Assembly (NCBI GenBank): GCA_021776115.1
Contig: JAJFGN010000042.1
Span: 15,000-78,999, forward strand
From: Kiloniellaceae bacterium
GTDB taxonomy: Bacteria; Pseudomonadota; Alphaproteobacteria; Kiloniellales; J153
Length of the DNA: 64,000 nt
Direction of reading: 5' to 3'
The notes under the pieces are model-generated. The model searched no databases. It was not told the DNA's origin and saw nothing but the letters and a program-made list of their open reading frames with translations. Position numbers and translations under genes: made by a program. Below are positions 6,261 to 50,522 of the stretch, piece after piece; position 1 is the first letter of the stretch; each line of letters opens with the position of its first letter.

Positions 6261-7346
6261 ATGATCTCAAGAAAACGGGCGCTGTTGTCCAACACAGTGA
6301 TGCCCTTCGTGTTGTTTGCCGGTGTTGCGGCTGGGGGCGTGGTCCTGACGAACGGCACTGGAAGCGCCCCGGCGCTGGCCCAGTGCGCCGCGAAGAAAGT
6401 CAATCCCTGCGCGGCAGCGAAGGTCAATCCTTGCGCGGCAGCGAAGTGCAATCCTTGCGCGGCAGCGAAGTGCAACCCTTGCGCGGCAGCGAAGTGCAAT
6501 CCTTGCAATCCCTGTGCGGCCAAGGGCTGCAATCCCTGCAATCCCTGTGCGGCAGGTGGTGGTGGGTCCGCCAGCAAGGCGTGCTTCGTGCCCCGTTTGC
6601 GGACGGCGGCGAAATGCAATCCTTGCGCTGCTAAGAAATGCAACCCTTGCGCGGCCAAGGCGTGTAACCCGTGTAATCCTTGCGCCGCCAAGAAGTGCAA
6701 TCCTTGCGCGGCCTCGAAGTGCAATCCTTGTGCTGCCAAGGCTTGCAATCCGTGTAATCCTTGTGCGGCCAAGAAATGCAATCCCTGCAATCCTTGCGCG
6801 GCGAAGGCTTGCAACCCTTGCAACCCCTGTGGCGGGGCCGCCGCGCCGGAGCTGACGGATGCCGAGGCGGTGAAGGTCTACGACTGCTTGTTGAAGGAGC
6901 TTAAGTCGGCCTACGCCAAGTCGGGCAACAAGGTCGCGGTGTCCTACGCATCTTGGCCGCGCTACAGCAGGCGGGCCTATGTATCCGATACGCATGGCGG
7001 CCGCTTCGTTCAGAACTATGCGAACAAAACCGGCCGCGCCTATGGCGCTTTCGAAAACGCGGGAACCCTACCGGCCGGCACCGCCCTGGCAAAGCCCAGT
7101 TTCTCGGTGACCGGGGGCGGCAAGGTTTCCGTTGAACCCTTGTTCATCATGGAAAAAATGAAGGCGGGCTTCAATTCGGATAGCGACGATTGGCGCTATA
7201 CCATGGTTATGCCGAACGGCGCCGTCTTTGGAACCACCAAGGGCAAGGGCGCGGACAACGTCGAGTTCTGCATCGGCTGTCACATGTCGGTGACGCCGGA
7301 TCAGGATTCGGTCATGCTCCTGCCGGAGGAGTACCGGGTCCGCTAA
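6261..7346 (+). CDS. Cytochrome P460-family protein with N-terminal CNPC cysteine-repeat domain
   Basis: Signal peptide, then residues 42-190 made of AAK(x)CNPC / CNPCNPC units (34 Cys by my count). The C-terminal 160 aa are paralogous to the preceding gene ([59 protein letters not shown]). Confidence 0.8.
6384..6830 (+). repeat. Coding tandem repeats (21-nt and 30-nt units) encoding AAKxCNPC / AAKxCNPCNPC
   Basis: Repeated gcggcagcgaagtgcaatccttgc-type units are visible in the DNA. They also generate a long mirror ORF on the opposite strand (5786..6823). Confidence 0.9.
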
Positions 7347-24412: not shown

Positions 24413-25016
24413 GAGGGACGCCCGCTCTCGCTGAAGATACCTGGGTCCGATGATAATGCATCCGCGAGGCGTGCCAACGCCTCATTGGCGCGGCGCCGGG
24501 GGACTGAATCGAAATAACACCCCCGAAAGGGGCGGCACGTTCCAGCTTGCCGAGGCTGCGGTATCGCGTGCTCTGTTCGCGCGCGTCCTGGGCTTGACTG
24601 CAGGTCTGCGCGCGTCGTCGCCAAAACCAACATGACGAAGCGCGTCAGGATGAGCGAGATCGTTCAGCAGACGAAGTGCGCCAAGCCACGGGTGAATCAT
24701 GCCTGGATTGCTGATTTCGTCGCCATAAACGGCCATGGGGCGAAAATTACGACAAATGTGACCTGGGTCAATGTTTCGATTGGCGAGTTGTGGTTGCTGT
24801 TTCAAATACCGGAAGTGCTATTTGGGAAATATCGGCTGACATGATTCGATATGTCACGGTTCCCTTCTCAGTCAAATGATTTTGATAAGGGAGCGGTACG
24901 GTCCACGTAGCGCCGGATAAGCGTTGCGGCACCTTGGCATTACATCCGCGGCCCGCGCCGCCGAGGCAGTCGGTGGCGAAGCGGCACGGAAAAATCGAGG
25001 CAGGGGAGATAGGGAC

Positions 25017-28000
25017 ATGGCACGAGCATATGCATCGAGCAAGCAAGGGCGGTGTTGGGCGGGCGTTCTGTCCGTCTTTGTCGCGTTCCTAGCCTTGACC
25101 GCCTGGGCGCCCCCGGCGGGCGCGTTCGAACAGTGGTCGACGGATAGAAACACCACGAATTGCGCCGAATGCCACGGCAACTTCCGGACGAGTCCCTACA
25201 TCTCGAACAAGGACGGGGCGAACTGGGGGGACGACCTCCACGACGTGCACCGGACCACGATGCTTTCCAGCGACTGCAACACCTGCCACGTAAGCGGATC
25301 GCGGTTCCCGGTCTTTCTCGGCTCTTCTGTCGGCGGAACCGGCCTCGACCCGATCTCCTGCGCGGGATGTCACGGCCGCGCCGAGGACGCGCAGACGCAG
25401 GGTAGTGTGATAGGTACGATTGGTGCCGGCCTGCGTCAGCGGCACTGGAATGCGGGGGAAACGGGCTGTCTCGACTGCCACGACGACTCCAATCCAACCG
25501 CTTTCACGACGGTGGCTGAAAACACACCGCCGCCCTACTACTTCACGCCCGACACGGCGCATCCCAACAAGCCGACCGACGCGTGCGACGCCAACGGGAC
25601 GGAAAGCCTGTTCGGAGCCACCGGCCTGGACAACGACGGCGACCTGCTCGAGGACGGCGCCGATTCGGACTGTGTGGTGGCAGTGCCTGACATCAATCCG
25701 AACCCGGCCACGCTCGACTTTGGCGTGGTCTTTGTCTCCAACACCGGCATGCTGACGACCCAGATCGAGAATTTGGGCACCGGCGATCTCACGGTGACCG
25801 GCCTCGGCTTTGGTGCCGGAACCAGCACGGAATTCACCTTCACGGCGCCGGCCACGCCGTTTATCGTCCCCGCCGGCGGCACGCAGGCCGTGGACGTGAG
25901 CTATTCGCCTGTCGATGTGGGCCTGGATACCGGCTCTCTGGAGATCGCCAGCGACGATCCCGACGAGGCCACCGTCGCGGTTGCCCTGTCGGGGACCGGC
26001 GAGGTGGCGCCGACGCCGGACATCAACCTCGCTCCGGTGGCGTTGGACTTCGGCACGGTCTTCCTCGGTAGTTCCTCGACCTTGACCGCCGACATCCAGA
26101 ACCTGGGCAATGCCGATCTCACGGTCACCTTCACTGGTCTGTGCACCGGCACCAGCGCGGAGTTCAGCTTCACGGCGGATGCGACTCCCTTTACCGTCCC
26201 GGCGGGCGGCAGCCGACAGGTGTCGGCGACCTATACCCCGGCCGACGTGGGAACGGATACCGGCTGTCTGGAAATCGCGAGCGACGATCCGGACGAAGCC
26301 ACGGTCTTGCTCGACCTGACGGGTACCGGAGCCGCGGTGCCGATACCGGACATCAACCTGAATCCGGTGGCGCTCGACTTCGGCACGGTCACGCTCGGTA
26401 ATTCGGGCACGCTGAGTGCCGATATCCAGAACCTCGGCAGCGCCGATCTCACTGTGACCGGCATCACGCCGTCCGCAGGGACGAGCGCCGAGTACAGCTT
26501 CACCGCACCGGCCGTCCCCTTCACGGTACCGGCGGGGGGCAGTCAGGCGGTGTCGGTGACCTACACCCCGGCGGATGTCGGGGTCGATGCCGGGTCTCTG
26601 GTGATCGCCAGCGACGACCCGGACGAGCCCACGTCCGACTTGGGCTTGACGGGCGCAGGCTCTGCCGTGCCTGCACCGGACATCAATCTGAATCCGGTGG
26701 CGCTCGACTTCGGCACGGTCACGGTCGGCGATTCCTTGATGCTGACCAGCCTGGTAGAGAACCTCGGGACGGCCAACCTGGCCCTTTCGGCCATCAACCT
26801 GTGCGCCGGCACCAGCAGCGAGTTCGTTCGCGGCGGGGTGTCGACCAACATCGCACCGGGGGCAAGCACGTCAATGACCGTGACCTACAGCCCGGTCGAC
26901 GAGGGCACCGATACCGGGTGCATAGCGATATCGAGCAACGATCCCGACGAGGCCACGGTCAATCTTGACCTTGCCGGAACCGGGGCAGTCGCGGCACCGG
27001 ACATCAACGTCACACCGATGGCGCTCGACTTTGGCGCGATCACCATCGGCAACACGGCGACCCTGTCCACCCAGATTGAGAACCTCGGCGCCGCCGATCT
27101 CAGTGTAACCGGCATCGCCTTGGGTTCGGGTACCAGCACGGAGTACAGCTTCACCGCACCGGCCACGCCTTTCGTGATCCCGGCCGGCGGCAGCCAAACC
27201 GTGACGGTGTCGTACGTTCCGTTCGATCTTGGTCTGGATACGGGGTCTCTGGAGGTCACCAGCGACGATCCGGACGAAGCCACGGTCACGGTTGCCCTGT
27301 CGGGGACCGGTGAGGCGGCGCCGACGCCGGATATCAACCTGGCTCCGATGGCGTTGGATTTCGGCACGGTCGCAATCGGCAATAGCGCGTTGCGCACCGC
27401 CGACATCCAGAACCTGGGCAATGCCGATCTCACGGTCGTCTTCGTCAACCTGTGCGTCGGTACCGGTGCGGAGTTCGACTTCACGGCGGATATGACACCC
27501 TTCGTTATCCCGCCGGGCGGCACCAGGGCCGTGTCGACGACCTACACCCCGGTCGATGTCGGGACCGACACCGGTTGCCTGGAGATTCAAAGCGATGATC
27601 CGGACGAATCGGTTGTCGAACTCGGCTTGACGGGTAGCGGTATCGATCAACCTGCCTTCAAGGAGGTCAACATCAAGGTGCCGCGTGCCATCAACCTGAA
27701 GAGCCGCGGTGTCACGCCCATCAAGTTCTGGGCCGACATGGACCTCGCCATCGCCGAGGTAACCTGTGGACCGGCCCAAGCCATGCCGGAACGGCTCAAC
27801 ACGGAAGACTTCAACGACGATGGCTTTACCGACGTGATTGGCTTGTTCAAGACTCAATCGCTCGGCATTGAGCGCGGCGACCGGACGCTGATGTGCAGCG
27901 GCATACTGGTTGGCGGCACCGCATTCGAGGGAACGTCCAATGAGTTCCGAACCGTCGGCCGCGACAAGGACAAAGACGAAGACGAAGACGAAGATCGCAA

Positions 28001-28091
28001 AAAAGATAAGGACGACGAAGACGAAGATGAAGATGAAGACGAAGACGAAGACGAAGACGAAGACGAAGACGAAGACGAAGACGAAGATTGA
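25017..28091 (+). CDS. Secreted tetrahaem c-type cytochrome fused to six Ig-like (choice-of-anchor-D/ASH-like) repeats and a poly-Asp/Glu tail
   Basis: Start ATG 25017 after GGGGAGA. Signal peptide ...FLALTAWAPPAGA. Four CXXCH motifs (CAECH, CNTCH, CAGCH, CLDCH), then GLDNDGDLLEDGADSDC. Six ~110-aa repeats begin PDIN(L)xPxALDFG. A C-terminal ~130-aa domain precedes the tail DKDKDEDEDEDRKKDKDDEDEDEDEDEDEDEDEDEDEDED. Confidence 0.85.
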   Translation: MARAYASSKQGRCWAGVLSVFVAFLALTAWAPPAGAFEQWSTDRNTTNCAECHGNFRTSPYISNKDGANWGDDLHDVHRTTMLSSDCNTCHVSGSRFPVFLGSSVGGTGLDPISCAGCHGRAEDAQTQGSVIGTIGAGLRQRHWNAGETGCLDCHDDSNPTAFTTVAENTPPPYYFTPDTAHPNKPTDACDANGTESLFGATGLDNDGDLLEDGADSDCVVAVPDINPNPATLDFGVVFVSNTGMLTTQIENLGTGDLTVTGLGFGAGTSTEFTFTAPATPFIVPAGGTQAVDVSYSPVDVGLDTGSLEIASDDPDEATVAVALSGTGEVAPTPDINLAPVALDFGTVFLGSSSTLTADIQNLGNADLTVTFTGLCTGTSAEFSFTADATPFTVPAGGSRQVSATYTPADVGTDTGCLEIASDDPDEATVLLDLTGTGAAVPIPDINLNPVALDFGTVTLGNSGTLSADIQNLGSADLTVTGITPSAGTSAEYSFTAPAVPFTVPAGGSQAVSVTYTPADVGVDAGSLVIASDDPDEPTSDLGLTGAGSAVPAPDINLNPVALDFGTVTVGDSLMLTSLVENLGTANLALSAINLCAGTSSEFVRGGVSTNIAPGASTSMTVTYSPVDEGTDTGCIAISSNDPDEATVNLDLAGTGAVAAPDINVTPMALDFGAITIGNTATLSTQIENLGAADLSVTGIALGSGTSTEYSFTAPATPFVIPAGGSQTVTVSYVPFDLGLDTGSLEVTSDDPDEATVTVALSGTGEAAPTPDINLAPMALDFGTVAIGNSALRTADIQNLGNADLTVVFVNLCVGTGAEFDFTADMTPFVIPPGGTRAVSTTYTPVDVGTDTGCLEIQSDDPDESVVELGLTGSGIDQPAFKEVNIKVPRAINLKSRGVTPIKFWADMDLAIAEVTCGPAQAMPERLNTEDFNDDGFTDVIGLFKTQSLGIERGDRTLMCSGILVGGTAFEGTSNEFRTVGRDKDKDEDEDEDRKKDKDDEDEDEDEDEDEDEDEDEDEDEDED
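25686..27656 (+). repeat. Six in-frame coding repeats of 330 nt (one of 321 nt)
   Basis: Repeat starts (ccngacatcaa) are at 25686, 26016, 26346, 26676, 26997 and 27327. Confidence 0.9.
28035..28082 (+). repeat. Perfect (GAAGAC)x8 microsatellite inside a longer GAN-codon tract (27963-28088)
   Basis: Read directly from the sequence. It encodes (ED)n at the extreme C-terminus of the large cytochrome. Confidence 0.95.
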
Positions 28092-30724: not shown

Positions 30725-31438
30725 ATGACACAACGCGTGCCGCTGTCCCTGCTGCCGGGCTTGCTGCTCGACGCCGGCCTTTGGCGGGCCCAGACGGAGG
30801 CTCTCGCGGACACCGCCGACTGCCGGGTCGCCGACTTTTCGACGCAGGATAATGTCGCGGACATGGCTCGCTCGGTCCTCGCGGCAATGCCGGAGCGTTT
30901 TGCCCTCGCCGGCTTGTCCATGGGCGGGTACGTCGCGCTCGAAATCATGCGCCAAGCGCCGCACCGTGTCGCCCTGCTGGCGCTGCTGGACACCAAGGCG
31001 CGATTGGACGTACCGGAAGAGACGCGCCGCCGGCGCGGCCTGATCGAACTGGCGCAAAAGGGCAAATTCCGCGGCGTTACCCGCATGCTCCTGCCCATGC
31101 TGGTTCACGAAGACGCGCTCGGCGACGAGGCCGTGACGGGTGAAATCATGGCCATGGCCGAGCGGTGCGGCCGCGACGTGTTCGTGCGTCAGCAAACCGC
31201 CATCATGACTCGGCCCGACAGCTTGCCGGGCTTGCCGCGCATTGCCTGCACGACCTTGGTCCTGTGCGGCCGCGAGGATGTCCGCACGCCGCTCGCGTGT
31301 CACGAGGAATTGGTCCGGGGTATTCACAGCGCGAGTCTGACCGTTATCGACGGGTGCGGTCACTTGCCGCCATTGGAAAAACCAACCGAAGTCAATCGGG
31401 CTTTACGCACATGGCTGTCCGCCTGGCCGCGAGGTTAG
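30725..31438 (+). CDS. Alpha/beta-fold hydrolase
   Basis: Nucleophile elbow GLSMGG, C-terminal GHLPPLEKP block, 237 aa. Confidence 0.85.
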   Translation: MTQRVPLSLLPGLLLDAGLWRAQTEALADTADCRVADFSTQDNVADMARSVLAAMPERFALAGLSMGGYVALEIMRQAPHRVALLALLDTKARLDVPEETRRRRGLIELAQKGKFRGVTRMLLPMLVHEDALGDEAVTGEIMAMAERCGRDVFVRQQTAIMTRPDSLPGLPRIACTTLVLCGREDVRTPLACHEELVRGIHSASLTVIDGCGHLPPLEKPTEVNRALRTWLSAWPRG

Positions 31439-31995
31439 AGATCGAACGCCGAGGAACTGCCCAGGATATTGTCGTTCTTGGAGGGGAACAGCTCGCGCGT
31501 TATCTGGCGCAGCAACCCTTTGAGCGCCGGGTCGTTGTGACCGGCCGCCGTTTGAGCCAAACGCGCGCTCACCGAAGTCTCGCGGGAGCTTCCTGCACAC
31601 AGCGCGGCCATAACCTGGATCGGTCCGTCGGCCTGGCGGCTGCTCGGCGCGGTTTCTTCGCAAAGATTCTGAGGTGAGGAACCGGGCTTGGCATTGAACA
31701 CCATAACGACCCGGTAGGGTGAGCCGTTATTCGGCTCCTTTTGGGTTGAGAACCGGAGTGGCTGCCCAAAGTTCGCGCCGGCCATCGCACCGGTTACCGT
31801 GCGTTCGAATTCGGCCTGCGACGCTTGAAAGGGGTTGCCGACAACCTGGGTGTATACGGGACCTTTAGCGGCGATGTAGTTGACGGTCTTGGGATCCCAT
31901 GTGCTCACATAAGTCGGGTCTAGCGCGCTGGCAGCACAGGCCGATAGCCCGCCGGCAAGAACCAAACTGGAAGTTAGTCGTGCAAAACCCGTCAT
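31435..31995 (-). CDS. Putative lipoprotein, unknown function
   Basis: MTGFARLTSSLVLAGGLSAC lipobox. GGAGG lies 9 nt upstream of ATG 31995. No family recognised. Confidence 0.55.
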   Translation of the reverse strand: MTGFARLTSSLVLAGGLSACAASALDPTYVSTWDPKTVNYIAAKGPVYTQVVGNPFQASQAEFERTVTGAMAGANFGQPLRFSTQKEPNNGSPYRVVMVFNAKPGSSPQNLCEETAPSSRQADGPIQVMAALCAGSSRETSVSARLAQTAAGHNDPALKGLLRQITRELFPSKNDNILGSSSAFDL

Positions 31996-32256
31996 CGAAT
32001 ACATCCTCCGTCGGCAACGATGAGACCTAGCATACCGCATTTGAGTGCGAATTCGGATCGCGACAATTCACGATTACGCGAAGCTTTGAAGTCGGCCTGA
32101 CGGACGCTTGCTTACATTGTTCGCGAGGCACTGAAAAGGCCTTGGCGGACGACGACCCCACTTAAAGGGGATTCCCGAACCGTCCTTTTTTGGCGGCAAG
32201 AAAAGAGGGGGGAGCTTGAGGCTCCCCCTGACCATCCCTCGCCGGCGGATCGGCGG

Positions 32257-33432
32257 CTACTTGCCGATGGTATGGGTGCTCGCGATCCCGGCGTAGGCTG
32301 CCTTGTCGGCGTCGGCATGGCAGCGCATGCACGCGAACTCCAGGCTCAGCGCATTCTTGGCCTTCTTGCCGTCGTCGCTGAACATGGTGTAGTCGGCGGC
32401 CTTGTTGATGCGGAACAGGTGAGTCCAGACGTCGCCCTCATAGGGGCCGTTCTTGATCGCCGATTTGGTCGCCCGGCCCATGTGGCAATCCTGGCAGCTG
32501 ACGCTGGCCTTCTCCATCGTACTGCCCGTGTAGGCCTTCCTTTGCTTGGCGTGGCAGGTATCGCAGACCTCCTTCTTGCCCTCGCGCACCTTGATGCCGC
32601 TGGCCCGCGTGTCGTGCGGATCGTGACAGCTGCCGCAGGAGAGCTTCGCGTGCGGGCTATTCAGGTGCTCTGGGTACTGTTCGTGGTGGCGGATAAAGCC
32701 GCCCGCAGCGATGGTCACATTGGGGTCCTTGCCGCGGACATGGCAGGATCCGCACTGCGCGGCCTTTTTGTCGATCTTGATGTTGGCCTTGGTCGGCTTC
32801 TTGGCGTGCGCCGCGCCCGGCCCATGACAGGCCTCGCAGGTGATGTTGAATTGGGCCCAGTCGCCTTTGATACCCGGAAGCCCGGCCTTGGAGACACCGG
32901 GGAAGCCCTTCTCGTTGAACACCTTGCCATCGATCTGGTAACCCGTGGTATGGCAGGTGCCGCAGGAAAACTGTTTCGTTTCGTCCTTGTGGTAGTTGCT
33001 CCACGACCCATCCGACCAGTTGTATTGGTTCTTGCCGTTCTTGGTGAGGATGTGCCCGTCGCTGCCGACAAAACGGGTCTTCCAGTGCTTGCTGGCGCCG
33101 ATGATGAAGAGGACGTTGTCCCAGTTGTAGACATCCTTGTCGTGATCGGGCAGCAGGAAGCCGCCGTCGCGGGCGTTGCCGAACAGGCCGAAGCGGCCAT
33201 CCAGGGCGCCGATGGCGGGGCCGCCGATGGCCAGCTTGCGGCTGTGGCCGTGGCTGAGCCAGGCGTCGAGCGCTTCGGCGTGGCATTGGCCGCAAACCTG
33301 GGGCCCTTCCGTGTAGGCCGCGTCGCCGTTGAGGCCCGCGGCCGCTGCCGGCGTGCTGGCCAGTGAAAGCACCAGTGCCGCCGGGAAGAGAAGACAGATC
33401 GGCATCAACGAGGGGAGGGAGATTTTTGTCAT
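32257..33432 (-). CDS. Periplasmic octahaem c-type cytochrome
   Basis: Signal peptide and eight CXXCH motifs (CGQCH, CGTCH, CEACH, CGSCH, CGSCH, CDTCH, CQDCH, CMRCH). AGGAG lies 6 nt upstream of the ATG. Confidence 0.85.
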   Translation of the reverse strand: MTKISLPSLMPICLLFPAALVLSLASTPAAAAGLNGDAAYTEGPQVCGQCHAEALDAWLSHGHSRKLAIGGPAIGALDGRFGLFGNARDGGFLLPDHDKDVYNWDNVLFIIGASKHWKTRFVGSDGHILTKNGKNQYNWSDGSWSNYHKDETKQFSCGTCHTTGYQIDGKVFNEKGFPGVSKAGLPGIKGDWAQFNITCEACHGPGAAHAKKPTKANIKIDKKAAQCGSCHVRGKDPNVTIAAGGFIRHHEQYPEHLNSPHAKLSCGSCHDPHDTRASGIKVREGKKEVCDTCHAKQRKAYTGSTMEKASVSCQDCHMGRATKSAIKNGPYEGDVWTHLFRINKAADYTMFSDDGKKAKNALSLEFACMRCHADADKAAYAGIASTHTIGK

Positions 33433-33747
33433 GACTGGCTCCTATGTGTTAGGGGCCGGCACCGAGGGAAGGCCTTAGCTTGGAGATTCAAAGCAATCCG
33501 GCGGACCGCCTGGAGATGCGTGCCCAAGGACACGTCCTGTATGACATCGTCAACTCGCGAAGGATTATGCATCCCTGCCTTAGCGTCAATGACCCCGATC
33601 AATTGCAGGGCGAAAATGCTTGACCTGACCCGGCGGGATCTCCCTGCGCGAGGATTGCCCCAACCGCCGTTACCCTCGATGGCACCGGTTTCCACCGGTT
33701 TCTCTAGGTCGATCCGATGCCCGACTCCGGTACCGCCGTGCCGGGTT

Positions 33748-34959
33748 TTATCTCGCGGGTTGGTTCGCATATAGCGAAGCGACGCTTTCGATGATCGCCT
33801 CGCTATAGGGCAGGCTCATCCTGTGCATCATGGAGCTGCCGCGCTTGCCGTCGCGATACGCCCTCAGGGCCTTAACGAGATAGTCCTTGTCCTGCCCGCT
33901 GATCTTCGGAATCGCCATCGTCGGATTCTTAACCTCCGCGCCGTGGCAACGGTTGCATTTCGCGGCTAACTCCGGCGCGGTTATCGGCCTGCTCTCTGCC
34001 GACGCGGATTGCTGTGTCGCATAAAACGCCGCGAGATTCGCGATCTCTTTGTCGGTGTCGTCGATGAGCATCCCATCGTGCTGGCGAGACCGGTCGCGGT
34101 AGGCCTTGATCGCGCCGACCAGGTATAGCGGGTCCTGGGCGGCAAGGCTCGGCGTTGCCGTATCGTGGCTCACCCCGCGCGCGCCGTGGCAACCGCCGCA
34201 GCGGGCGCTTAGCGGCTCGCCGGCGGCGGCGTCGCCGAAGGTGGGCGCGTCCCGCCGTGCCGGAGTTTGAGTCGCGTAGTACATGGCCAAGCTCTCGATA
34301 TCGACATGGCTCAGTTCGCGCAGCATCTCCTTGCCGGAAATGCTGCGTCTGCCGTCCAGATAGGCCCGCACGGCAGAGACAAAATAAAGCGGCTGTTGGC
34401 CGGCCAGACTCGGCGTGCCGGAAGTCTTGCTGTTGCCGTCGTCGCCATGGCAATTGGCGCAGACGCCGGCCTGTGCCTTGCCCTTTTCGTAGGGAGACAT
34501 GAGATCTTCCGGCTTCATTTCAGCGACGCCCTCGAGCGGCGGCAGACTGGCGTAGTAGCCAGCGACGTTGCGGATCTCCGCGCTGCTCAGCTCCTTCGTC
34601 ATGTCCCGGAGGGCGGCATGCGTCCGCTTTTCCTCCTTGTAGGCAACTAGCGACTCGAACAGATACTGGTCGACCTGGGCCGCCATGTGAGGGATACCGG
34701 GCGCCCGGCCCCTCCCGTCCAGGCTATGGCAGCCGACGCACTGCGCCTCCGCCACGGATTTGCCAGCGCCGATATCCGGGGGCACCATGGCGGTCTTCGT
34801 ATCCTCGCCGCACCCGATCAGCACCAATGGCAGCACGATACCCAATGCAAAGCGCCTCACGAACCGTCTCGGACTGGAGCCCGATCGAAGAACCGGTGAG
34901 AGTATGGCCCGGCTCTCGGTGAAAACGGCCCTGTAGGTTCCCTTGTGCATGCGTGCCAT
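33748..34959 (-). CDS. Lipoprotein with four class-I (c4/c553-like) cytochrome c domains
   Basis: Lipobox LVLIGC. Four ~90-aa repeats each carry one CXXCH (CVGCH, CANCH, CGGCH, CNRCH) and a downstream AYxxGxR....M block. The ATG at 34959 is preceded by GGAGA; an upstream GTG at 34974 is also possible. Confidence 0.8.
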   Translation of the reverse strand: MARMHKGTYRAVFTESRAILSPVLRSGSSPRRFVRRFALGIVLPLVLIGCGEDTKTAMVPPDIGAGKSVAEAQCVGCHSLDGRGRAPGIPHMAAQVDQYLFESLVAYKEEKRTHAALRDMTKELSSAEIRNVAGYYASLPPLEGVAEMKPEDLMSPYEKGKAQAGVCANCHGDDGNSKTSGTPSLAGQQPLYFVSAVRAYLDGRRSISGKEMLRELSHVDIESLAMYYATQTPARRDAPTFGDAAAGEPLSARCGGCHGARGVSHDTATPSLAAQDPLYLVGAIKAYRDRSRQHDGMLIDDTDKEIANLAAFYATQQSASAESRPITAPELAAKCNRCHGAEVKNPTMAIPKISGQDKDYLVKALRAYRDGKRGSSMMHRMSLPYSEAIIESVASLYANQPAR

Positions 34960-34992
34960 CGATAAGGTCTCCACAATATGGCGGTCTCGCTT

Positions 34993-36987
34993 CTACCCGG
35001 ACACCGTATGTCCCCAGAAGCCGACCAAAACCAGGACGAGCAGCGTCAGTCCGATCAGGATCAATGTGGCCCCCAATACCTTGGAAGCCCGCGTCATCGG
35101 CCGCGACGGCGCGTCCACCAGATATTTCTCGAACTCTCCGCTTTCGACCAGACGCCGGTATTCCAATGTGTGCTCGCGTTTGTACTCCTCCAACGGCATG
35201 GCTCCCGTGAACATCAAGATATCCATCGGAAACTTGTCCGGCCTGAAATGGACGTTGAAAAAGTGAACCGAGAACAAGAACACGGCTGCAAGGAACGCCT
35301 CCTCCCCGTGAACGAGGGTCGCCACATTGAACACCCACCCGGGCAGAACGGAGGCCGTTACCTGCGGAAACCACAACATCGCTCCACTCAAGCCGATGAT
35401 CACCATGCCCCAGAACGGCGCCCAGTAGTCGAATTTCTTCCAGTAGGTCCAGCGGTCGAAGATCGGCCGCGATCCCATGCCGAAGAACCACTTGAACATG
35501 GCCACCACATCCCACAGGTCTTGCAGGTTCGGCACCGTCGAGTTGGGCCCGAAGAACTTGAAGGTTTTCCAGTTCCGGATGACGTGGGTCAGAACGTACA
35601 CGAGATGCCCGACGAATATGAAGATGAAGGCCGCTGCGGCGAATCTGTGGATCAACGCCGCGACTTTGGGGCCACCGAGCAGCTTCATGACTAGCTGCGC
35701 CCAGCCCGAATCCGCATAGAGCACCGCAGTCCCGGTCAGGACTAGCGTCATTATGGCGATCGCAAAGATGAGGTGGGCGAGCCGCCAGAGGGCGGGCCAG
35801 CGCTTGACATACTTCTTTTCGCCCTGCGGCAACTCGTTGATCTGCACGTGCGGCCTGTTCTTGGCTTCCGCGCGGTCTCTGTACTCCCGGTAGAACCACA
35901 GCGCCGAGTGAGTCCAGAAGAAGGCGAAGACGCCGGAGAGCAGCGCGATCATGCCCTTGGAGGCGAGCCACAAATACGGATAGCGTTCGAAGTCTTTGGT
36001 ATTGCCGTGCGGCTGGAAGGTGGTGAACCCGGCGACCGCGTCCTCATGACATTTCCGGCAGGTGGTAAGGCGGTTGGTCCCGTACACCTGCGATGCCGGG
36101 TCGTCCACCCTTTGAATTTCGTGGTAACCGTGGCAGTCGAAGCATTTGGCTGTATAGGCATAGCCCAAGGTGCTCACCTGGCCGTGGTACGTACCGGTAT
36201 AGGTTTCCAGCTCTTCTTCGTGGCAGTTCCCGCAATTCTTGGTAATCGCCAGTTCGACCGAGCCACCGTTACTGCCGGTCGGAGATTCGATGTCATGCGT
36301 GGTATGGCAGTCTGTGCAGACGGCTGCGAAAGGATTGGCGTTAACGGAAATCTCCTTGCCGTGCACTGAGGTCAGATAGGCAGCCTTTTGCTCGGTATGA
36401 CACCTCCCGCAGATGTTCGGAATCTCCAGCCGCGATTCCGCACCGATCGTGCTTTCGATCGGAACGACATAGTGGGCATTGTGGCAGTCATAGCAGGTTG
36501 CGTTGGTTCGCGACTGGTCGTCCATATTGGGCCGGGCGTGGATCGACGCCCAGTAGCTCTCGATCTGCCGCACCACCTTGCCCAACGTGGCGTTTTCCGC
36601 CATCTTGCCCTCGCGCAGGGCTGTTTCCCATAGGCTCTGGTGGCACTTGACGCAGCCGACCACTCGATCGACGTTCTCCCGGTGCGGGATCTCGACGACG
36701 TCCTTGTGGCACTCCACGCAAGCGCGCTTCCCATGCACGCTCTCTCCGAATCTCTCCGGCTCTATATGCAGCTGGCGCATTTCACCGCCGGGGCCGGGTT
36801 CGGCAAAATCTTCGATGCCGTGACAACCCAGGCACAATTCGCTGTCAAGCAATTCGGCGTCGCTTTCGGCCGCCGTGTCAGCGCTTGGGGTCGTCTGCGC
36901 CTCGGCTCGCGCCGACCAACCGCCGGTCGCGACCGCCAACAAAACACTGCTCGCAAGGGCCCAAGTCAGAAATCTGGAAGCGCGCAT
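34993..36987 (-). CDS. CbcL-like fusion: periplasmic nine-haem c-type cytochrome domain plus membrane cytochrome-b (FdnI/HydC-like) domain
   Basis: Signal peptide and nine CXXCH motifs (CLGCH, CVECH, CVKCH, CYDCH, CGRCH, CTDCH, CGNCH, CFDCH, CRKCH) in residues 1-330. About six hydrophobic helices follow, with conserved His residues (WRLAHLIF, ALIHRFAAAAFIFIFVGHLVY, ATLVHGEEAFLAAVFLFSVHFFNVHF). Confidence 0.85.
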   Translation of the reverse strand: MRASRFLTWALASSVLLAVATGGWSARAEAQTTPSADTAAESDAELLDSELCLGCHGIEDFAEPGPGGEMRQLHIEPERFGESVHGKRACVECHKDVVEIPHRENVDRVVGCVKCHQSLWETALREGKMAENATLGKVVRQIESYWASIHARPNMDDQSRTNATCYDCHNAHYVVPIESTIGAESRLEIPNICGRCHTEQKAAYLTSVHGKEISVNANPFAAVCTDCHTTHDIESPTGSNGGSVELAITKNCGNCHEEELETYTGTYHGQVSTLGYAYTAKCFDCHGYHEIQRVDDPASQVYGTNRLTTCRKCHEDAVAGFTTFQPHGNTKDFERYPYLWLASKGMIALLSGVFAFFWTHSALWFYREYRDRAEAKNRPHVQINELPQGEKKYVKRWPALWRLAHLIFAIAIMTLVLTGTAVLYADSGWAQLVMKLLGGPKVAALIHRFAAAAFIFIFVGHLVYVLTHVIRNWKTFKFFGPNSTVPNLQDLWDVVAMFKWFFGMGSRPIFDRWTYWKKFDYWAPFWGMVIIGLSGAMLWFPQVTASVLPGWVFNVATLVHGEEAFLAAVFLFSVHFFNVHFRPDKFPMDILMFTGAMPLEEYKREHTLEYRRLVESGEFEKYLVDAPSRPMTRASKVLGATLILIGLTLLVLVLVGFWGHTVSG

Positions 36988-37056: not shown

Positions 37057-37070
37057 TTGACCTAAGTCAA
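37057..37070. promoter_or_regulatory. FNR/FixK (CRP-FNR family) box TTGACCTAAGTCAA
   Basis: Perfect TTGA-N6-TCAA palindrome, centred about 77 bp upstream of the ATG of the CbcL-like gene. It lies in the 329-bp spacer between that gene and parE. Confidence 0.45.
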
Positions 37071-40283: not shown

Positions 40284-41156
40284 CTAGCTGGCGACGGAGG
40301 AGCCGGTAGCGCCCGCCGCGCCCGCGTCGGCGAGGCCGGTCATACGGAAGCCCGGACCTTCTTTCTGGCGCCGAGCCGCGTCGTCGCGGCCTCGTATCTT
40401 GCCGATGCGGAAGGTCATGTCTTTGGAGAGCTTATCGTATGCCTCGGCGGTCTTGGCCACGTCCTCCGGTGCAACAATGCCTGTAGCTTGAAGAATCGCC
40501 TGGAGGTAGTCGAGGGACGTCTCCTTGGGGGGCTTATGGGCCTCCGACCAGAATTCGATGATCCCGGCGATATAACCTGTCAGGCGTAGCCTGTGCTCCG
40601 GTGTTTTGCCGAATTGCGGCCCGACATATTGAAGGGCGTCTTGAACCAAGGCCAGGAGGTTGGCCATTTCCGAATCGCTCTTCTTGGGTGGCGACGCCTT
40701 GGGTGCGATGGGTTCCGCGGATTTGAGATTGGCGCTGACGTCCGTGAGTTTTTTCTTGCGCCTGGCGCTCAAGCCTTGTCGTTGCGCGTGCTGCAGCCAG
40801 AGCGTGATCCGCTCGACAAGGGTTTCCATGCTGTCGGACTTGATTATGTAATCGTCGCCTCCGGCGGCGAGGCAGTCGCGCAGGACGTCGATCTGGTCTA
40901 GGGCGCTCAGAAATAAGATCGGAATGTTGCCGCCGATGATCTTTCGGGCGCGCTCGCAGGTCTCGATGCCGTTGAGCTTTGGCATCATGATGTCCAGGAT
41001 CACCAGACGGGGCGTTGTCTTTGAGAGGAAGCTCAGCGCTTCGACACCGTCGGCCGCCGCCAAGACGCTGAAGCCAGCGGCGCTTAGCGTGTCGACATAA
41101 AGCCGTCTCATGAGCGGATCGTCTTCCGCGAGGACAATAAGGCCGCCGCCTGCCAC
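40284..41156 (-). CDS. Response regulator: receiver domain plus uncharacterised C-terminal domain
   Basis: REC motifs (LIVLAEDD, VILDIMMPKLNG, ILFLSA, DDYIIKS) followed by a ~150-aa domain that I cannot assign. Confidence 0.85.
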   Translation of the reverse strand: MAGGGLIVLAEDDPLMRRLYVDTLSAAGFSVLAAADGVEALSFLSKTTPRLVILDIMMPKLNGIETCERARKIIGGNIPILFLSALDQIDVLRDCLAAGGDDYIIKSDSMETLVERITLWLQHAQRQGLSARRKKKLTDVSANLKSAEPIAPKASPPKKSDSEMANLLALVQDALQYVGPQFGKTPEHRLRLTGYIAGIIEFWSEAHKPPKETSLDYLQAILQATGIVAPEDVAKTAEAYDKLSKDMTFRIGKIRGRDDAARRQKEGPGFRMTGLADAGAAGATGSSVAS

Positions 41157-41270: not shown

Positions 41271-41738
41271 TCAGGAAGTGTCGTGTTCGGCAGAGCCGAG
41301 TTTGGCATTGAGATCCTGGAGCAATTTCTCGCGCCTGGCATGCATGCCTTGCCGCTTCGCGTGCCGCCGCCAGGTATGGATCCGCTCGATCAGGGATTCG
41401 ATGCTGTTGGACTTGATCAGGTAATCGTCGCCGCCGGCGGCGAGGCAGTCGCGCAGGATGACGATCTGATCCAGGGCGCTCAGAAAAAGGATCGGGATGT
41501 CATTGCCGATGATCTTTCGGGCGCGCTCACAGGTCTCGATGCCGTTGAGTTTCGGCATCATGATGTCCAAGATGACCAGTCGAGGCGTTACCCTGGAGAG
41601 CAAGCTCAGAGCCTCCAAACCGTCAGCCGCCGCCAGAACGCTGAAGCCGGCTTCTTCCAGAGTATCGACATAAAGCCGCCTCATGAGCACATCGTCTTCC
41701 GCAAGGACAATGAGGCCTCTGCTACTTATGCTTGTCAC
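41271..41738 (-). CDS. Single-domain response regulator (receiver only), paralogue of the downstream gene
   Basis: About 75-80% amino-acid identity by eye to residues 5-150 of ORF 40284..41156. Confidence 0.85.
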   Translation of the reverse strand: MTSISSRGLIVLAEDDVLMRRLYVDTLEEAGFSVLAAADGLEALSLLSRVTPRLVILDIMMPKLNGIETCERARKIIGNDIPILFLSALDQIVILRDCLAAGGDDYLIKSNSIESLIERIHTWRRHAKRQGMHARREKLLQDLNAKLGSAEHDTS

Positions 41739-48666: not shown

Positions 48667-49212
48667 TTAGCGTGGCGTGTCCGGATTGAGCCGGCTGCCT
48701 AGATAATCCAGGATCGCCGACAATTCCTCCGGCTCGGGTTCGGGCATGCCCTGTTCCTCGACCATCCATTCCAGCGTCTCTTCCCACGACGCCCGCGTTA
48801 GCCGCTGCTGCAGCACAATGGCGAGCGAGTGACACGCTTGACAGATGTAATAAACCTCCTCGCGTCCCGGACCCGCCGCTAGTCCACCCCAGTCTTCGCT
48901 ATCGACGCCGAAATGGGTCGAGAGATAGGACAAGATCAAGGTCCGGGCCCAAGGCTTGGGCGGTGTCATGTTATTGGACTTGATCATGCGTTCGATGTTC
49001 GCGTCCCAGTCCTCGCGGCTCATGCGCTGCTGTGCGAACTGGTTGAGCGAGTGGCAAGCGGTGCAGGTGAAATACACTGCTTCCCGGCCCGGGCCCTCGG
49101 GCAAGCCCTCGAAATCGGCGGCGTCCTGTGCGGCGCTGGCGGTTGGGAGGCGCGCGCCCCAACCGCCGAGCAGCAAGATCGTCAGGAAAACCCCAGCAGC
49201 GAAGCGGTTCAA
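48667..49212 (-). CDS. Periplasmic dihaem c-type cytochrome (two tandem domains), probable electron acceptor of the sulfite dehydrogenase
   Basis: Signal peptide. Two homologous halves each carry GPGRE(A/E)VY(F/Y)xCxACHSL. The start overlaps the stop of the Mo-enzyme gene. Confidence 0.8.
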   Translation of the reverse strand: MNRFAAGVFLTILLLGGWGARLPTASAAQDAADFEGLPEGPGREAVYFTCTACHSLNQFAQQRMSREDWDANIERMIKSNNMTPPKPWARTLILSYLSTHFGVDSEDWGGLAAGPGREEVYYICQACHSLAIVLQQRLTRASWEETLEWMVEEQGMPEPEPEELSAILDYLGSRLNPDTPR

Positions 49213-50522
49213 GCGACCTGGACCGCGATTCGATGCATGGAGTTGTTGAGGTAGCCCTTGGGATTCCAGTTGATCGCAAAGGGTTGCGTCATGCCGGCGT
49301 CATCGGTGGCGCGGGCCCAGATCTCGTAATAGCCCTTCTCGGGGAACGATAGGTCGGCGTTCCAGCGTTGCCAGGAGTAAGGGTTGGGTGGGTCCATGAG
49401 TTGGGCCGCGATCCAGGTCGCGCCGAAATCTATGCTGACGTGCATCGCGGCCACCTTCCGGTCGCCGGCCCAAGCGTGCCCACCGACCCGCAGGCTCCGC
49501 CCACCGATGCTTTGGCCGGTCTCATGCGAGGTGATCAGGGACTTCACCGGCATGGCCTCGATAATCCGGAAATCCTTCTTGTCCACTTTGGTGCCCGGCG
49601 CGACGTTGTAGTAGGGCCGCCGGTACGCCGTGCCGGTCATCTTCGGCCCGTCGTGCACGACGTCGCGGATCTGAATCCGGCGCAGCCATTTTTGCGAGGT
49701 CGACCCAGGCCAGCCCGGACAAATCGTGCGCGCCGGAAATCCGTTCAGGGTCGGGATCGGCTCGCCATTCATCTCGAAGGCGACGATCGAATGGGCCTCC
49801 ATCGCCTTGGCCAAAGGCACTCCGCGCGAGATCGGTAACTTGTTCGGGTCGCCGGAAAGGTGTCCATCCATACCGTAGTGCGCGGTATAGATGGCCGAGT
49901 CTTTGACGCCCGCGGCCTTGAGCAGGTCGCGGTAACGTATGCCCGTCCACTCGGCATTGCCGATCGCGCCGAGGGTCCATTGATTGCCCTTGGCCGGCGG
50001 GTTGAAGGCGGCGCGGCCATTGCCGCCGCATTCGACCTGGAGCTTGAGCTTGACCACCTCGAACCTGCTCTTGAGGTCGTCGAGCGTCAGCGTCATCGGG
50101 TTGTTCACCTCACCGTCGACGGTAAGCGTCCAGCCGCTTGCGTCCATCTTCTCGGCCATTTCAGGCACGATTCCGTTGTTACGCACGAAATGGCGGCTGT
50201 TGGGGGTCACGTCGTCGTCGAGCAGGTGCGGCGGCGTCTCGGCGTTGATCGGCCTGTCGTTCAAGACCGTCAGGCCGTCCTTGCCTTTGAGCATGAAATC
50301 CTTGGTCGATTCCGCCAGGGCGGCGGGGATCAGGCCACTGGGCATGTTGCTTTGGAAGGGAATAGTGCCGCCGACCACGGCGCCCATCGCGGCCAAGCCG
50401 GCGCCCTTTAGAAAGCCGCGCCGATCGCGCTCCGCGACCCGGCCGAAAATCATATAGTCGGCCGCTTCCGGGTCCTGTTCATAAAGTTCGCAGATGCCTC
50501 GCTCGATCGGCTTCTTGGTCAT
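49209..50522 (-). CDS. Sulfite-oxidase-family molybdopterin oxidoreductase (SorA/SoxC-like), Tat-exported
   Basis: Twin-arginine signal ERDRRGFLKGAGLAAMGAVV. Moco-binding region (LNDRPINAETPPHLL, VECGGNGR) and a C-terminal dimerisation-domain-like sequence. Confidence 0.87.
   Translation of the reverse strand: MTKKPIERGICELYEQDPEAADYMIFGRVAERDRRGFLKGAGLAAMGAVVGGTIPFQSNMPSGLIPAALAESTKDFMLKGKDGLTVLNDRPINAETPPHLLDDDVTPNSRHFVRNNGIVPEMAEKMDASGWTLTVDGEVNNPMTLTLDDLKSRFEVVKLKLQVECGGNGRAAFNPPAKGNQWTLGAIGNAEWTGIRYRDLLKAAGVKDSAIYTAHYGMDGHLSGDPNKLPISRGVPLAKAMEAHSIVAFEMNGEPIPTLNGFPARTICPGWPGSTSQKWLRRIQIRDVVHDGPKMTGTAYRRPYYNVAPGTKVDKKDFRIIEAMPVKSLITSHETGQSIGGRSLRVGGHAWAGDRKVAAMHVSIDFGATWIAAQLMDPPNPYSWQRWNADLSFPEKGYYEIWARATDDAGMTQPFAINWNPKGYLNNSMHRIAVQVA

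Follow-up and report, generated by a model that had tools for sequence, protein, structure and literature searches.

CbcL, MtrH and MtoC are inner-membrane quinol oxidases or quinone reductases whose family is tied to MtrAB and MtoAB clusters, and a survey of these genes found that further c-type cytochrome genes often adjoin them (PMC6295460). Among the sites where the quinone pool exchanges electrons with periplasmic or extracellular chains, proteins of the CbcL/MtoC type are those least understood. The locus described here combines a member of this family with a c4-type and an octahaem cytochrome, a mix that the original prediction called unusual but which has precedents. MtoC goes with the class-I cytochrome MtoD (PMC6295460, PMC4412085), a bis-His cytochrome with a potential of +155 mV (PMC4412085), and the c4 cytochrome CycA1 goes with bc1 in Acidithiobacillus (PMC10654088). 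PdsA is a dihaem shuttle linking NetBCD/CymA to MtrA (PMC8805035). On the side of the octahaem, the closest described protein is OcwA, a terminal reductase (PMC6703420) in which H281 and H282 lie over the five-coordinate haem 2 (PMC6703420; PMC9250108). OcwA and OmhA belong to clade 3 of the NrfA superfamily, previously represented by a handful of Gram-positive cell-surface proteins (PMC9250108).

The window, i.e. the whole 64-kb stretch of DNA that we analysed, comes from an uncultured marine-type alphaproteobacterium. We re-derived ORFs and haem-binding motifs from the sequence and obtained three cytochrome genes on the minus strand, encoding the CbcL-like, tetrahaem and octahaem proteins with 9, 4 and 8 CXXCH motifs, i.e. 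21 c-haem sites in total, and without any CX3-4CH motif (table 1). Eight or four CXXCH in proteins of these sizes are far above the chance expectation. The CbcL-like and tetrahaem genes are separated by 33 bp, the tetrahaem and octahaem genes by 315 bp. We thus retrieved all the elementary features of the original prediction: the genes and their common strand, the gaps, the lipobox, the signal peptide, the motif counts and the 21 c-haems. The direction of electron flow, which the prediction had left open, cannot be read from the sequence. MtrAB, PioAB, Cyc2, porin and decahaem genes are all absent from the window, hence no link to the outer membrane is visible. We propose, with a probability of roughly one half, that the locus encodes a low-oxygen-induced, quinone-linked CbcL-c4 module with a facultative OcwA-like periplasmic redox partner.

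Table 1. Features of the cytochrome locus (positions in the window; units refer to the proposed transcription units).
Feature	Position	Strand	Unit	Basis or location
CbcL-like inner-membrane cytochrome	34993..36987	-	1	664 aa, 9 CXXCH, PF01292
Lipid-anchored tetrahaem cytochrome, four tandem class-I (c4/c552/c553-like) domains	33748..34959	-	1	PF00034, lipobox
Soluble periplasmic octahaem cytochrome, OcwA/OmhA/MccA/c554 clade	32257..33432	-	2	8 CXXCH, AF2 model, Foldseek, profile
FNR/FixK/Anr-type palindrome TTGACCTAAGTCAA (TTGA-N6-TCAA), perfect	37057..37070			70-83 bp upstream of the CbcL-like start codon
One-mismatch FNR-like box (minus strand: TTGATCGGGGTCAT)	33589..33602			157-170 bp upstream of the octahaem start
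Intrinsic-terminator-like hairpin GGGGGAGC-CTCAA-GCTCCCCC, then CTCTTTTCTT	32208..32228	-		29 bp past the octahaem stop codon

The CbcL-like protein has the two parts expected of the CbcL/MtrH/MtoC family. At its N-terminus, in the periplasm, is a c domain with nine haems; at its C-terminus is a HydC/FdnI-like b-type domain, which in this family crosses the membrane with about six helices and has conserved His ligands. The nine CXXCH (residues 52-314) are invariant in four homologues, and so are the membrane histidines 360, 405, 447, 461, 560 and 575. The C-terminal part has four strongly hydrophobic segments and two weaker ones (residues ~520-540 and 551-575, read by eye), and the match to PF01292 scores 33.1 bits (cut-off 30.1). 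We predict that the protein is a quinol dehydrogenase or a quinone reductase. Its homologues, at 50-81% identity, are in many cases adjoined by MtrB/MtrA-like genes.

The tetrahaem protein has 403 aa, CXXCH motifs at residues 74, 167, 254 and 335, and a lipobox (LVLIGC, Cys50) that is kept in 110 of 120 homologues. Its four domains align to one another. It matches PF00034 with 85 bits, and among PDB entries it matches the cytochromes c4 6q2u and 8uf3 at E-values of about 1e-19 to 1e-18 (best 1.6e-19); no MtoD structure is among these PDB sequence matches. The match to the NCBIfam PdsA model (NF049874) is partial and its 98.7 bits are far under the cut-off of 330. Several start codons can be considered. 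Automatic ORF calling picks a GTG at 34974, while the ATG at 34959 is part of a GGAG-N9-ATG arrangement conserved in the window, L007 and L172. Yet 89 of the 120 homologues are shorter than 398 aa, and many of these have their start some 33 aa further on (M[KR]xLAL...), equivalent in the window to a GTG at 34860 and to a gap of 132 bp with the CbcL-like gene. The mature protein is identical whether translation starts at this GTG or at the ATG. We rejected a Tat signal in the stretch SPRRFVRR, because the maturation of c-type cytochromes follows Sec export and the motif is not conserved in homologues.

The domains of this protein had been described as high-potential and c4-type. All four are class-I domains and all have the AY..G.R....M block. 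However, Met120 of domain 1 is conserved in 65 of the 120 homologues while His114 is found in every one of them, so uniform His/Met 'c4' ligation is not established. From this pattern, domain 1 is probably bis-His, and hence would not be a typical high-potential c4 haem, which makes 'high potential' an uncertain label for the protein. In the same homologues, domain 2 has its Met at position 210 or 212, and domains 3 and 4 retain theirs.

The CbcL-like gene and the tetrahaem gene are a conserved pair or operon in Alpha-, Beta- and Gammaproteobacteria. A c4 gene is found directly downstream of the CbcL homologue and on the same strand in 14 genome loci (L013-L015, L019-L021, L023-L026, L042, L076, L077 and L088), as well as in L007-L010, L172, L136 and L165. 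This pairing is confined to CbcL homologues with at least ~56% identity. What follows the c4 gene is variable: the slot is empty in L007 and L008, holds a Fer4-NrfD-molybdopterin enzyme in L172, and is taken by a second c4 in Hyphomicrobiales loci. In the closest pairs, either this type of enzyme or unrelated genes come next, and most CbcL-c4 loci are conserved without an octahaem. In 8 other loci the gene that immediately precedes the CbcL homologue encodes an HAO/HDH-like octahaem, which makes the coupling of an octahaem with a CbcL-type membrane module a recurrent design. Matches to the NCBIfam HDH model were obtained for the upstream octahaems of L030, L047, L069 and L086. As relatives of the octahaem in the window these 8-haem ORFs were discarded, since they do not match the HMM of its family.

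The octahaem protein has 391 aa, with CXXCH motifs at residues 47, 157, 199, 227, 266, 290, 313 and 368, and starts with a hydrophobic segment (residues 4-22) followed by PAAAA. All the CXXCH of this protein and of the tetrahaem protein are invariant among homologues. Its AF2 model, which is without haems, has a pLDDT of 90.6 and displays an N-terminal tetrahaem module that resembles c554 and has a beta-sheet insertion (strands in residues 107-155). The best folds retrieved by Foldseek are OcwA (6i5b, E = 3e-12, TM 0.57), OmhA and MccA (TM 0.55), and the profile search against PDB gave the same proteins: OcwA at 5.5e-29 (residues 30-206), OmhA at 3.4e-22 and MccA at 4.6e-18. The segment HHEQYPEHL (residues 249-257) aligns to HHLQYPEWL of OcwA, whose two histidines, 252/253 in the chain, are H281/H282 given an offset of 29 residues. 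In 71 homologues the conservation of His249 and His250 is 90% or more; the homologue of L088 lacks the motif. This alignment suggests that the protein probably has one haem with open coordination, haem 2, under His249-His250.

Other multihaem families do not fit. There is no CXXCK, the motif of the active-site haem in NrfA/ONR, for which the Foldseek scores were TM ≤0.19 and E ≥0.06. The best HAO/HDH fold (6t5e) had an E-value of 0.6 and a probability of 0.13, and the NCBIfam HDH model did not match. Similarity to OTR (1SP3) is restricted to a local profile match (E = 1.3e-4, residues 162-285) and OTR is absent from the Foldseek list. The decahaem family of MtrA/DmsE (TIGR03508) scores 38 bits for a cut-off of 192, and the protein has eight haems, not ten. 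The octahaem is thus OcwA/OmhA/MccA-like, not HAO, ONR or OTR, and stands outside the catalytic octahaem families that the original prediction had named as evidence against itself. Its role as a passive periplasmic wire fared less well: the resemblance to OcwA and MccA, together with the distal His-His motif, suggests a terminal redox protein or an enzyme.

FNR/FixK boxes typically mark genes of microaerobic respiration. The perfect motif TTGA-N6-TCAA has three matches in the 64 kb, where 0.56 are expected, and of 77 loci, 26 have such a box in the ~350 bp that precede the CbcL homologue (0.03 expected per locus). The one preceding the CbcL-like gene is a putative low-oxygen activator site of the CbcL-c4 operon. 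The imperfect box upstream of the octahaem gene is suggestive only, as a candidate for a separate low-oxygen promoter. Perfect boxes precede the octahaem homologues of L171 (82% identity), L014 and L088. Boxes with at most one mismatch occur in 26 of 76 loci of the family where ~18% are expected, i.e. an approximately two-fold enrichment. The upstream regions of the octahaem genes of the window and L171 do not align, and a scan for sigma-70 promoters gave none on the minus strand of the region. The stem of the terminator-like hairpin after the octahaem gene is 8 bp long, and 7 of these pairs are G-C; between the c4 and octahaem genes the minus strand has no comparable terminator.

The idea that the three genes form one system is partly borne out. 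CbcL and c4 are a conserved functional pair, but the octahaem is not part of a conserved three-gene unit. The gene neighbourhoods gave a mixed answer. The nearest octahaem homologues, in L171 (82%), L091 (74%), L001 (67%) and L004 (65%), are not beside CbcL-c4. A single metagenome sample yielded both L171 and the CbcL-c4 locus L008, which suggests that a close relative keeps octahaem and CbcL-c4 apart. In contrast, CbcL and c4 are followed, in the same orientation, by a distant homologue of the octahaem (33-38% identity) in L014, L015, L088, L136 and L165/L169. This is more than expected by chance, and at least five loci, gammaproteobacterial or metagenomic, thus have the order CbcL-c4-octahaem. 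Some members of the family lie beside distant CbcL-family genes (L102, L104, L111 and L123), others beside Rieske/cytochrome b genes (L097, L099, L102 and L158). Members of the octahaem family are thus linked to CbcL-family genes recurrently, yet facultatively. The recurrent neighbours other than cytochromes are generic two-component regulators, which give no pointer to a substrate.

One may ask if the octahaem is simply a chance neighbour, i.e. an independent periplasmic cytochrome with other partners next to a self-contained CbcL-c4 pair. We regard this as unlikely. It would account for the unrelated contexts of the closest octahaem homologues and for the spacer, box and terminator that the gene has of its own. 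It would also fit the scarcity of octahaem-family genes in CbcL-family genome loci (3 of 80) and the surroundings of the locus, where the flanking genes (ParE, DEAD-box helicase, isochorismatase, hydrolase and a 201-aa lipoprotein) lack synteny with all the loci compared and the three intergenic regions lack similarity to any of them. However, three genome loci and two metagenomic loci share the order and strand of the three genes in spite of the low identity of their octahaems. Furthermore, of 81 distinct octahaem-family loci, 14 have a member of the CbcL-/MtrA-like multihaem cluster within 5 kb on either side and 6 have one of the tetrahaem c4 cluster (both figures include the window), far above what chance gives for rare families.

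We therefore keep the reading of a low-oxygen module with a facultative partner, which would work as follows. The locus would consist of two transcription units that probably answer the same signal, low oxygen. The first would be an operon of the CbcL-family cytochrome and its dedicated tetrahaem, in which the b-type membrane domain of the former would exchange electrons with the quinone pool and its nine c-haems would pass them along. The tetrahaem, tethered to a membrane by its N-terminal lipid via an acidic linker, would be the periplasmic outlet or inlet. The second unit would produce the soluble octahaem of the OcwA/MccA clade. This protein would most likely act at the end of the chain, as a terminal reductase or oxidase whose substrate is soluble or colloidal. 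The tetrahaem and the CbcL-like protein would connect it to the quinone pool.

The original prediction saw in the three proteins a wire across the periplasm. Spelled out, this would be a relay between the quinone pool and an outer-membrane porin-cytochrome (MtrAB, PioAB or MtoAB) encoded elsewhere in the genome, which would serve either to reduce Fe(III)/Mn(IV) or for Fe(II)/electrode oxidation. The family is tied to such clusters, as mentioned above (PMC6295460). MtrB/PioB-like and decahaem genes adjoin many CbcL homologues (L010, L014, L039, L046, L049, L050, L057, L059, L062, L078 and others), and in L014 the same trio lies inside an MtrB/MtrA cluster, between MtrB (402 bits) and a decahaem. 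We nevertheless find this relay improbable, given the lack of porin and decahaem genes in the window, the low score against the DmsE/MtrA family of NCBIfam, and an octahaem that keeps the open-haem pocket motif and resembles OcwA and MccA, which are terminal reductases or enzymes, not relays. The c4-type cytochromes are established electron donors of cbb3 oxidases, and the tetrahaem matches both a cbb3-c4 structure (8snh) and the ccoP domain of NCBIfam. The CbcL-c4 pair, conserved without octahaem in most loci and here preceded by an FNR/FixK box, might accordingly be an alternative quinol:cytochrome c oxidoreductase with no need of the octahaem. When oxygen is low, it would bypass bc1 or supplement it, and its electrons would go to periplasmic acceptors of high potential, e.g. 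cbb3 oxidase or the enzymes of denitrification. This has an equally low probability, since no oxidase or denitrification gene is linked to the pair here or in the related loci examined, the probably bis-His domain 1 is atypical for a high-potential c4, and the recurrent octahaem or MtrAB neighbours are left unexplained.

These findings are incremental and do not overturn current models. They extend the OcwA/OmhA clade to abundant periplasmic proteins of Proteobacteria and other phyla (916 homologue clusters and more than 549 metagenomic loci). They also provide one CbcL subclade with a testable partner, the dedicated lipid-anchored tetrahaem, and, by the FNR-type boxes preceding the CbcL-c4 operon in many lineages, with testable conditions of induction. 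A wider generalization is tentative and on balance rather doubtful: the 391-aa protein would stand for a large and so far uncharacterised family of OcwA-like octahaem oxidoreductases in the periplasm of Gram-negatives, with a catalytic five-coordinate haem and interchangeable quinone-linked membrane modules, either CbcL/MtoC-type with the tetrahaem adaptor or Rieske/cytochrome b. If true, this would be a new family of anaerobic or microaerobic respiratory enzymes, for which an N-oxide, hydroxylamine, a sulfur compound or a chelated metal are candidate substrates.

How does the locus compare with known systems? The CbcL-like gene has the same architecture as CbcL of Geobacter sulfurreducens, MtrH of Rhodoferax ferrireducens and MtoC of Dechloromonas and Gallionella, and betaproteobacterial homologues in Mtr-type clusters are ~50% identical to it. 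In contrast to MtrAB/MtoAB-type clusters, no MtrAB or MtoAB gene is linked to it in the window. Its subclade (at least ~56% identity) is paired with a lipid-anchored tetrahaem class-I cytochrome, whereas MtoC goes with the monohaem MtoD. MtoD of Sideroxydans and PdsA of Aeromonas/Vibrio are, like the tetrahaem, class-I partners encoded beside an inner-membrane quinone-reactive cytochrome, but they are soluble and have one or two domains instead of four with a lipid anchor. Likewise, cytochrome c4 is a soluble periplasmic protein of two domains, whereas the tetrahaem has four domains homologous to those of c4 and a conserved lipobox. The HAO-c554-cM552 chain of Nitrosomonas also couples a periplasmic octahaem to a quinone-reactive membrane multihaem cytochrome. 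CbcL operons recurrently recruit octahaems of two clades: HAO/HDH-like ones are encoded immediately upstream of CbcL, while the OcwA/MccA-like one of the window is downstream, after the tetrahaem.

Among known octahaems and their relatives, the best match in fold and profile is OcwA, the nonahaem terminal reductase of Thermincola potens (PDB 6I5B), although sequence identity is ~16%. Both proteins have c554-like haems 1-4, a beta-sheet domain between haems 1 and 2, and HH-x-QYPE over haem 2 (PMC6703420). They differ in haem number (eight against nine, and eleven in OmhA of Carboxydothermus), in the second open haem of OcwA (HH380/381), which has no counterpart here, and in its C-terminal three-helix bundle, since the octahaem ends 19 residues after the motif of haem 8 and its model has short helices only. 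They also differ in location, i.e. the periplasm of a Gram-negative against the cell surface of a Gram-positive. MccA, the octahaem sulfite reductase of Wolinella (PDB 4RKM), has eight haems in a comparable order, and the motifs of haems 5-7 align (e.g. CHDPH and CHMP). Yet the octahaem is about half its length, and its haem 8 is bound by CMRCH instead of CX15CH (or CX17CH) (PMC9250108). The Cu-binding cysteines of MccA (C399 and C495) are missing (PMC9250108): the sole Cys outside the motifs is in the signal peptide, hence the mature protein has no Cu(I) site. Taken together, CbcL-c4 with an adjoining octahaem does not amount to a new kind of system, but is a variant of electron-transfer gene clusters that are already known.

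Recounting by script gave 9, 4 and 8 c-haem motifs, 21 in all, in three consecutive minus-strand genes, with no CX3-4CH variants in the three proteins and intergenic gaps of 33 bp (CbcL-like/c4) and 315 bp (c4/octahaem). The original prediction had described three cytochrome genes with these motif counts, lipobox and gaps, and the recount from sequence bears it out. Every CXXCH is invariant among homologues, and the counts are therefore not due to chance. The trio is flanked by housekeeping genes (ParE, DEAD-box helicase, isochorismatase, hydrolase), and the adjacent ParE shares 79-83% identity with proteins from metagenome-assembled genomes of Kiloniellaceae/Kiloniellales, which places the window in an uncultured alphaproteobacterium of this group.

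Coordinates of features in the window and in homologous loci fetched for comparison (L-handles)
Feature	Sequence	Position	Strand	Description
CbcL-like gene	window	34993-36987	-	664 aa, nine CXXCH
Tetrahaem (c4) gene	window	33748-34959	-	403 aa, four CXXCH, lipobox LVLIGC with Cys50
Octahaem gene	window	32257-33432	-	391 aa, eight CXXCH, hydrophobic N-terminus then PAAAA
Perfect TTGA-N6-TCAA palindrome	window	37057-37070		70-83 bp upstream of CbcL start
Strong terminator-like hairpin	window	32228-32208		after octahaem gene
Predicted lipoprotein	window	31435-32040	-	201 aa, lipobox LSAC, just downstream of terminator
Tetrahaem/Ig-like protein	window	24924-28091	+	1055 aa, four CXXCH
One-mismatch FNR-like box	window	24758-24771		GTGACCTGGGTCAA, about 155 bp upstream of the 1055-aa gene
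Cytochrome P460-family protein	window	5450-6094	+	35 bits
Monohaem protein	window	6261-7346	+	361 aa
Sulfite-oxidase-type molybdoenzyme	window	48670-50522	-	Oxidored_molyb + Mo-co_dimer; adjacent or overlapping dihaem cytochrome c ORF
Response regulator	window	40284-41156	-	long C-terminal extension
Response regulator	window	41271-41738	-	
Octahaem homologue	L014	11477-13045		
Octahaem homologue	L015	13673-15232		
Octahaem homologue	L088	13795-15354		
Redox gene set	L172	2760-7765		after CbcL-c4, same strand

The CbcL-like protein combines nine c-haem motifs with a membrane domain of the Ni_hydr_CYTB (HydC/FdnI-like) type, which scores above the cut-off of Pfam, and its hydrophobic segments carry His residues invariant in the homologue comparison. 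Its predicted architecture is that of the CbcL/MtrH/MtoC family. A survey treats the members of this family as quinol oxidases or quinone reductases in pathways of extracellular electron transfer; they are known both from bacteria that reduce Fe(III) and from bacteria that oxidise Fe(II), and other cytochrome genes often adjoin them (PMC6295460). A scan of the genome collection gave at least 590 relatives, and the best 80, used as genome loci, span Alpha-, Beta- and Gammaproteobacteria, Magnetococcales and others. A tetrahaem gene directly follows the CbcL homologue on the same strand in 14 of these best 80, and likewise in loci L007-L010 and L172 and in two metagenomic loci, which supports the predicted linkage of these two genes. 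All loci with the pair have CbcL homologues at least about 56% identical to that of the window; the betaproteobacterial homologues at about 50% lack the tetrahaem gene and mostly lie beside MtrB/MtrA/MtrC-like genes. CbcL and the tetrahaem are thus a clade-specific, conserved two-gene module.

Larger clusters occur in Hyphomicrobiales, Xanthobacteraceae and Pseudolabrys MAGs (L019-L026). In most of them CbcL is accompanied by two tetrahaem c4 paralogues of about 40% identity, and most also encode a decahaem, a protein with a weak match to MtrB/PioB and, on the opposite strand, another CbcL paralogue that is shorter. In L172, which encodes the closest c4 relative (84% identical), the genes after the pair encode Fer4 (PsrB-like) and NrfD (PsrC-like) proteins, a molybdopterin oxidoreductase of 868 aa and a chaperone of the TorD type. 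The position behind c4 appears to be taken by different redox enzymes, depending on the genome.

Four class-I domains in tandem (Pfam Cytochrom_C, 85 bits) make up the tetrahaem, which matches cytochrome c4 entries of the PDB down to E 1e-19; the PdsA profile is matched in part only, far under cut-off. Its start codon is ambiguous: the ATG at 34959 lies in a GGAG-N9-ATG arrangement conserved in three related loci, and 89 of 120 homologues are shorter than 398 aa, many of them starting where the window has a GTG at 34860. The lipobox is kept in 110 of the 120, and the mature protein would therefore be identical with either start. The 'AY..G.R....M' block is found in all four domains of the window's protein, as first described, but among the homologues a Met is retained only in domains 3 and 4, plus Met210 or Met212 of domain 2. 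In domain 1 His114 is invariant and just 65 of the 120 homologues have a Met, so uniform high-potential His/Met ligation is not established.

The octahaem has only generic multihaem matches in Pfam and NCBIfam, under family cut-offs, and its family (916 clusters at E 1e-5 or better) is essentially unnamed. The AlphaFold model, built with 71 homologues, is confident (pLDDT 90.6). In Foldseek it matched OcwA, the nonahaem terminal reductase of Thermincola potens (TM 0.57, E 3e-12), OmhA of Carboxydothermus, which ranks with the best matches, and the octahaem sulfite reductase MccA (TM 0.55). Matches to NrfA, ONR, HAO and c554 were insignificant and OTR was not in the match list; the protein does not group clearly with HAO, ONR or OTR, an outcome that would have counted against the original prediction. 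The family profile gave E 5.5e-29 for OcwA, 3.4e-22 for OmhA and 4.6e-18 for MccA. Profile alignment placed the nearly invariant HHEQYPEHL (His249/His250) on HHLQYPEWL of OcwA, where H281/H282 lie over the distal face of the five-coordinate haem 2 (PMC6703420; PMC9250108). The model also shows a beta-sheet insertion between haems 1 and 2, a feature that it shares only with OcwA and MccA. MccA itself is ruled out, since the free cysteines of the Cu site are absent and the haem 8 motif is a normal CXXCH; compared with full OcwA, the protein has only eight haems and lacks both the second open haem and the three-helix bundle. With such a fold and profile in a protein that is neither MccA nor full OcwA, the octahaem belongs to an uncharacterised periplasmic branch of 'clade 3' of the NrfA superfamily. 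The homologues in L014, L015 and L088 are extended at the C-terminus by a domain of about 140 aa with a conserved GEGF...SFYTYD...WG motif and no Pfam match, which is absent from the window's octahaem; the L088 protein has also lost the His-His motif.

Could the octahaem adjoin CbcL-c4 by chance? Its closest homologues lie in unrelated contexts, without CbcL-c4 beside them: next to RNase HII and methyltransferase genes in L171 (82% identity), beside the Nqr operon and NnrS in L001 (67%), and among other unrelated genes in L091 (74%) and L004 (65%). The metagenome of L171 also contains the CbcL-c4 locus L008, with unrelated genes in the slot after c4, and we found no synteny of flanks or intergenic DNA with related loci. 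However, in three gammaproteobacterial genomes (L014, L015, L088) a clear family member lies downstream of CbcL and c4 on their strand, with all eight haem motifs aligned (HMM 382-436 bits, 33-37% identity), and the order recurs in two metagenomic loci, L136 and L165/L169. Chance adjacency is thus rather unlikely. The neighbourhood is conserved in these five loci but not around the closest homologues (82-65%), and the octahaem's link to CbcL-c4 is best described, from gene order, as facultative but non-random. Some remaining family members lie beside distant CbcL-family genes or Rieske/cytochrome b genes. In eight further CbcL-family loci the gene immediately upstream encodes another kind of octahaem, HAO/HDH-like; octahaem proteins are recurrently paired with CbcL-type membrane modules.

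These HAO/HDH-like genes, on the same strand as CbcL (L030, L032, L047, L069, L080, L082, L084, L086), occur in Thiomargarita, Methylomonas/Methylococcales, Magnetococcales, Sedimenticola and other Gammaproteobacteria MAGs; the proteins score 79-88 bits against the hydrazine-dehydrogenase profile and are 50-86% identical among themselves. The arrangement suggests an octahaem-enzyme-to-quinone module, of which we found no prior description in the literature consulted.

The window's c4-octahaem spacer contains no terminator-like hairpin comparable to that after the octahaem gene, and this spacer is long in all trios (253-710 bp). Perfect TTGA-N6-TCAA palindromes, sites typical of FNR/Anr/FixK low-oxygen regulons, occur only three times in the window (0.56 expected), and such a box lies upstream of CbcL homologues at 26 of 77 loci (0.03 expected per locus). 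The window's octahaem has a one-mismatch box at 33589-33602, 157-170 bp upstream. Its homologues in L171, L014 and L088 have perfect boxes upstream, which for L014 and L088 fall within the c4-octahaem spacer; enrichment across the octahaem family is modest (26 of 76 loci, about 18% expected). Two transcription units with a common low-oxygen signal would be the most economical reading.

The 1055-aa protein is an unusual combination of an N-terminal tetrahaem region, six Ig-like domains of the choice-of-anchor-D/ASH type (364 bits) and, at the C-terminus, a long poly-Asp/Glu tail; possibly it is a cytochrome that is secreted or surface-exposed and co-regulated with the other cytochrome genes. 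Neither Pfam nor NCBIfam matches the 201-aa lipoprotein, and none of the fetched loci encodes a homologue. A LysR regulator gene lies upstream of the P460 and monohaem genes, and the monohaem protein has no match in Pfam. The molybdoenzyme with its dihaem ORF resembles a SorAB-like sulfite dehydrogenase pair. The two paralogous response regulators, side by side, have near-identical receiver domains; the extension of the longer one has no recognised output domain.

We propose with moderate confidence that the CbcL-like protein would couple the quinone pool to its nine c-haems, that the lipid-tethered tetrahaem would be its dedicated periplasmic adaptor, and that the OcwA-like octahaem, with haem 2 probably open, would be an optional terminal module at which a soluble or colloidal substrate is reduced or oxidised. 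Of the wire first envisaged, the CbcL-tetrahaem link is conserved, but the three genes are not one conserved unit. The three proteins might instead relay electrons to an outer-membrane conduit encoded elsewhere; the L014 trio has an MtrB/PioB porin (402 bits) and a decahaem on one side and an 11-haem MtrC-like gene on the other, and no MtrB/PioB porin or decahaem gene lies within the 64-kb window. We consider such a relay unlikely, and hold it just as improbable that CbcL-c4 is a bc1-bypassing quinol:cytochrome c oxidoreductase.

The value of the locus lies in an uncharacterised OcwA-like periplasmic family and a conserved CbcL-tetrahaem pairing under putative FNR-type control. The pair has parallels in MtoC with MtoD, a class-I, bis-His cytochrome of +155 mV (PMC4412085), and in NetBCD/CymA with PdsA (PMC8805035). 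CbcL and OcwA are precedents for outward electron flow, MtoC/MtoD and HAO-c554-cM552 for inward flow.
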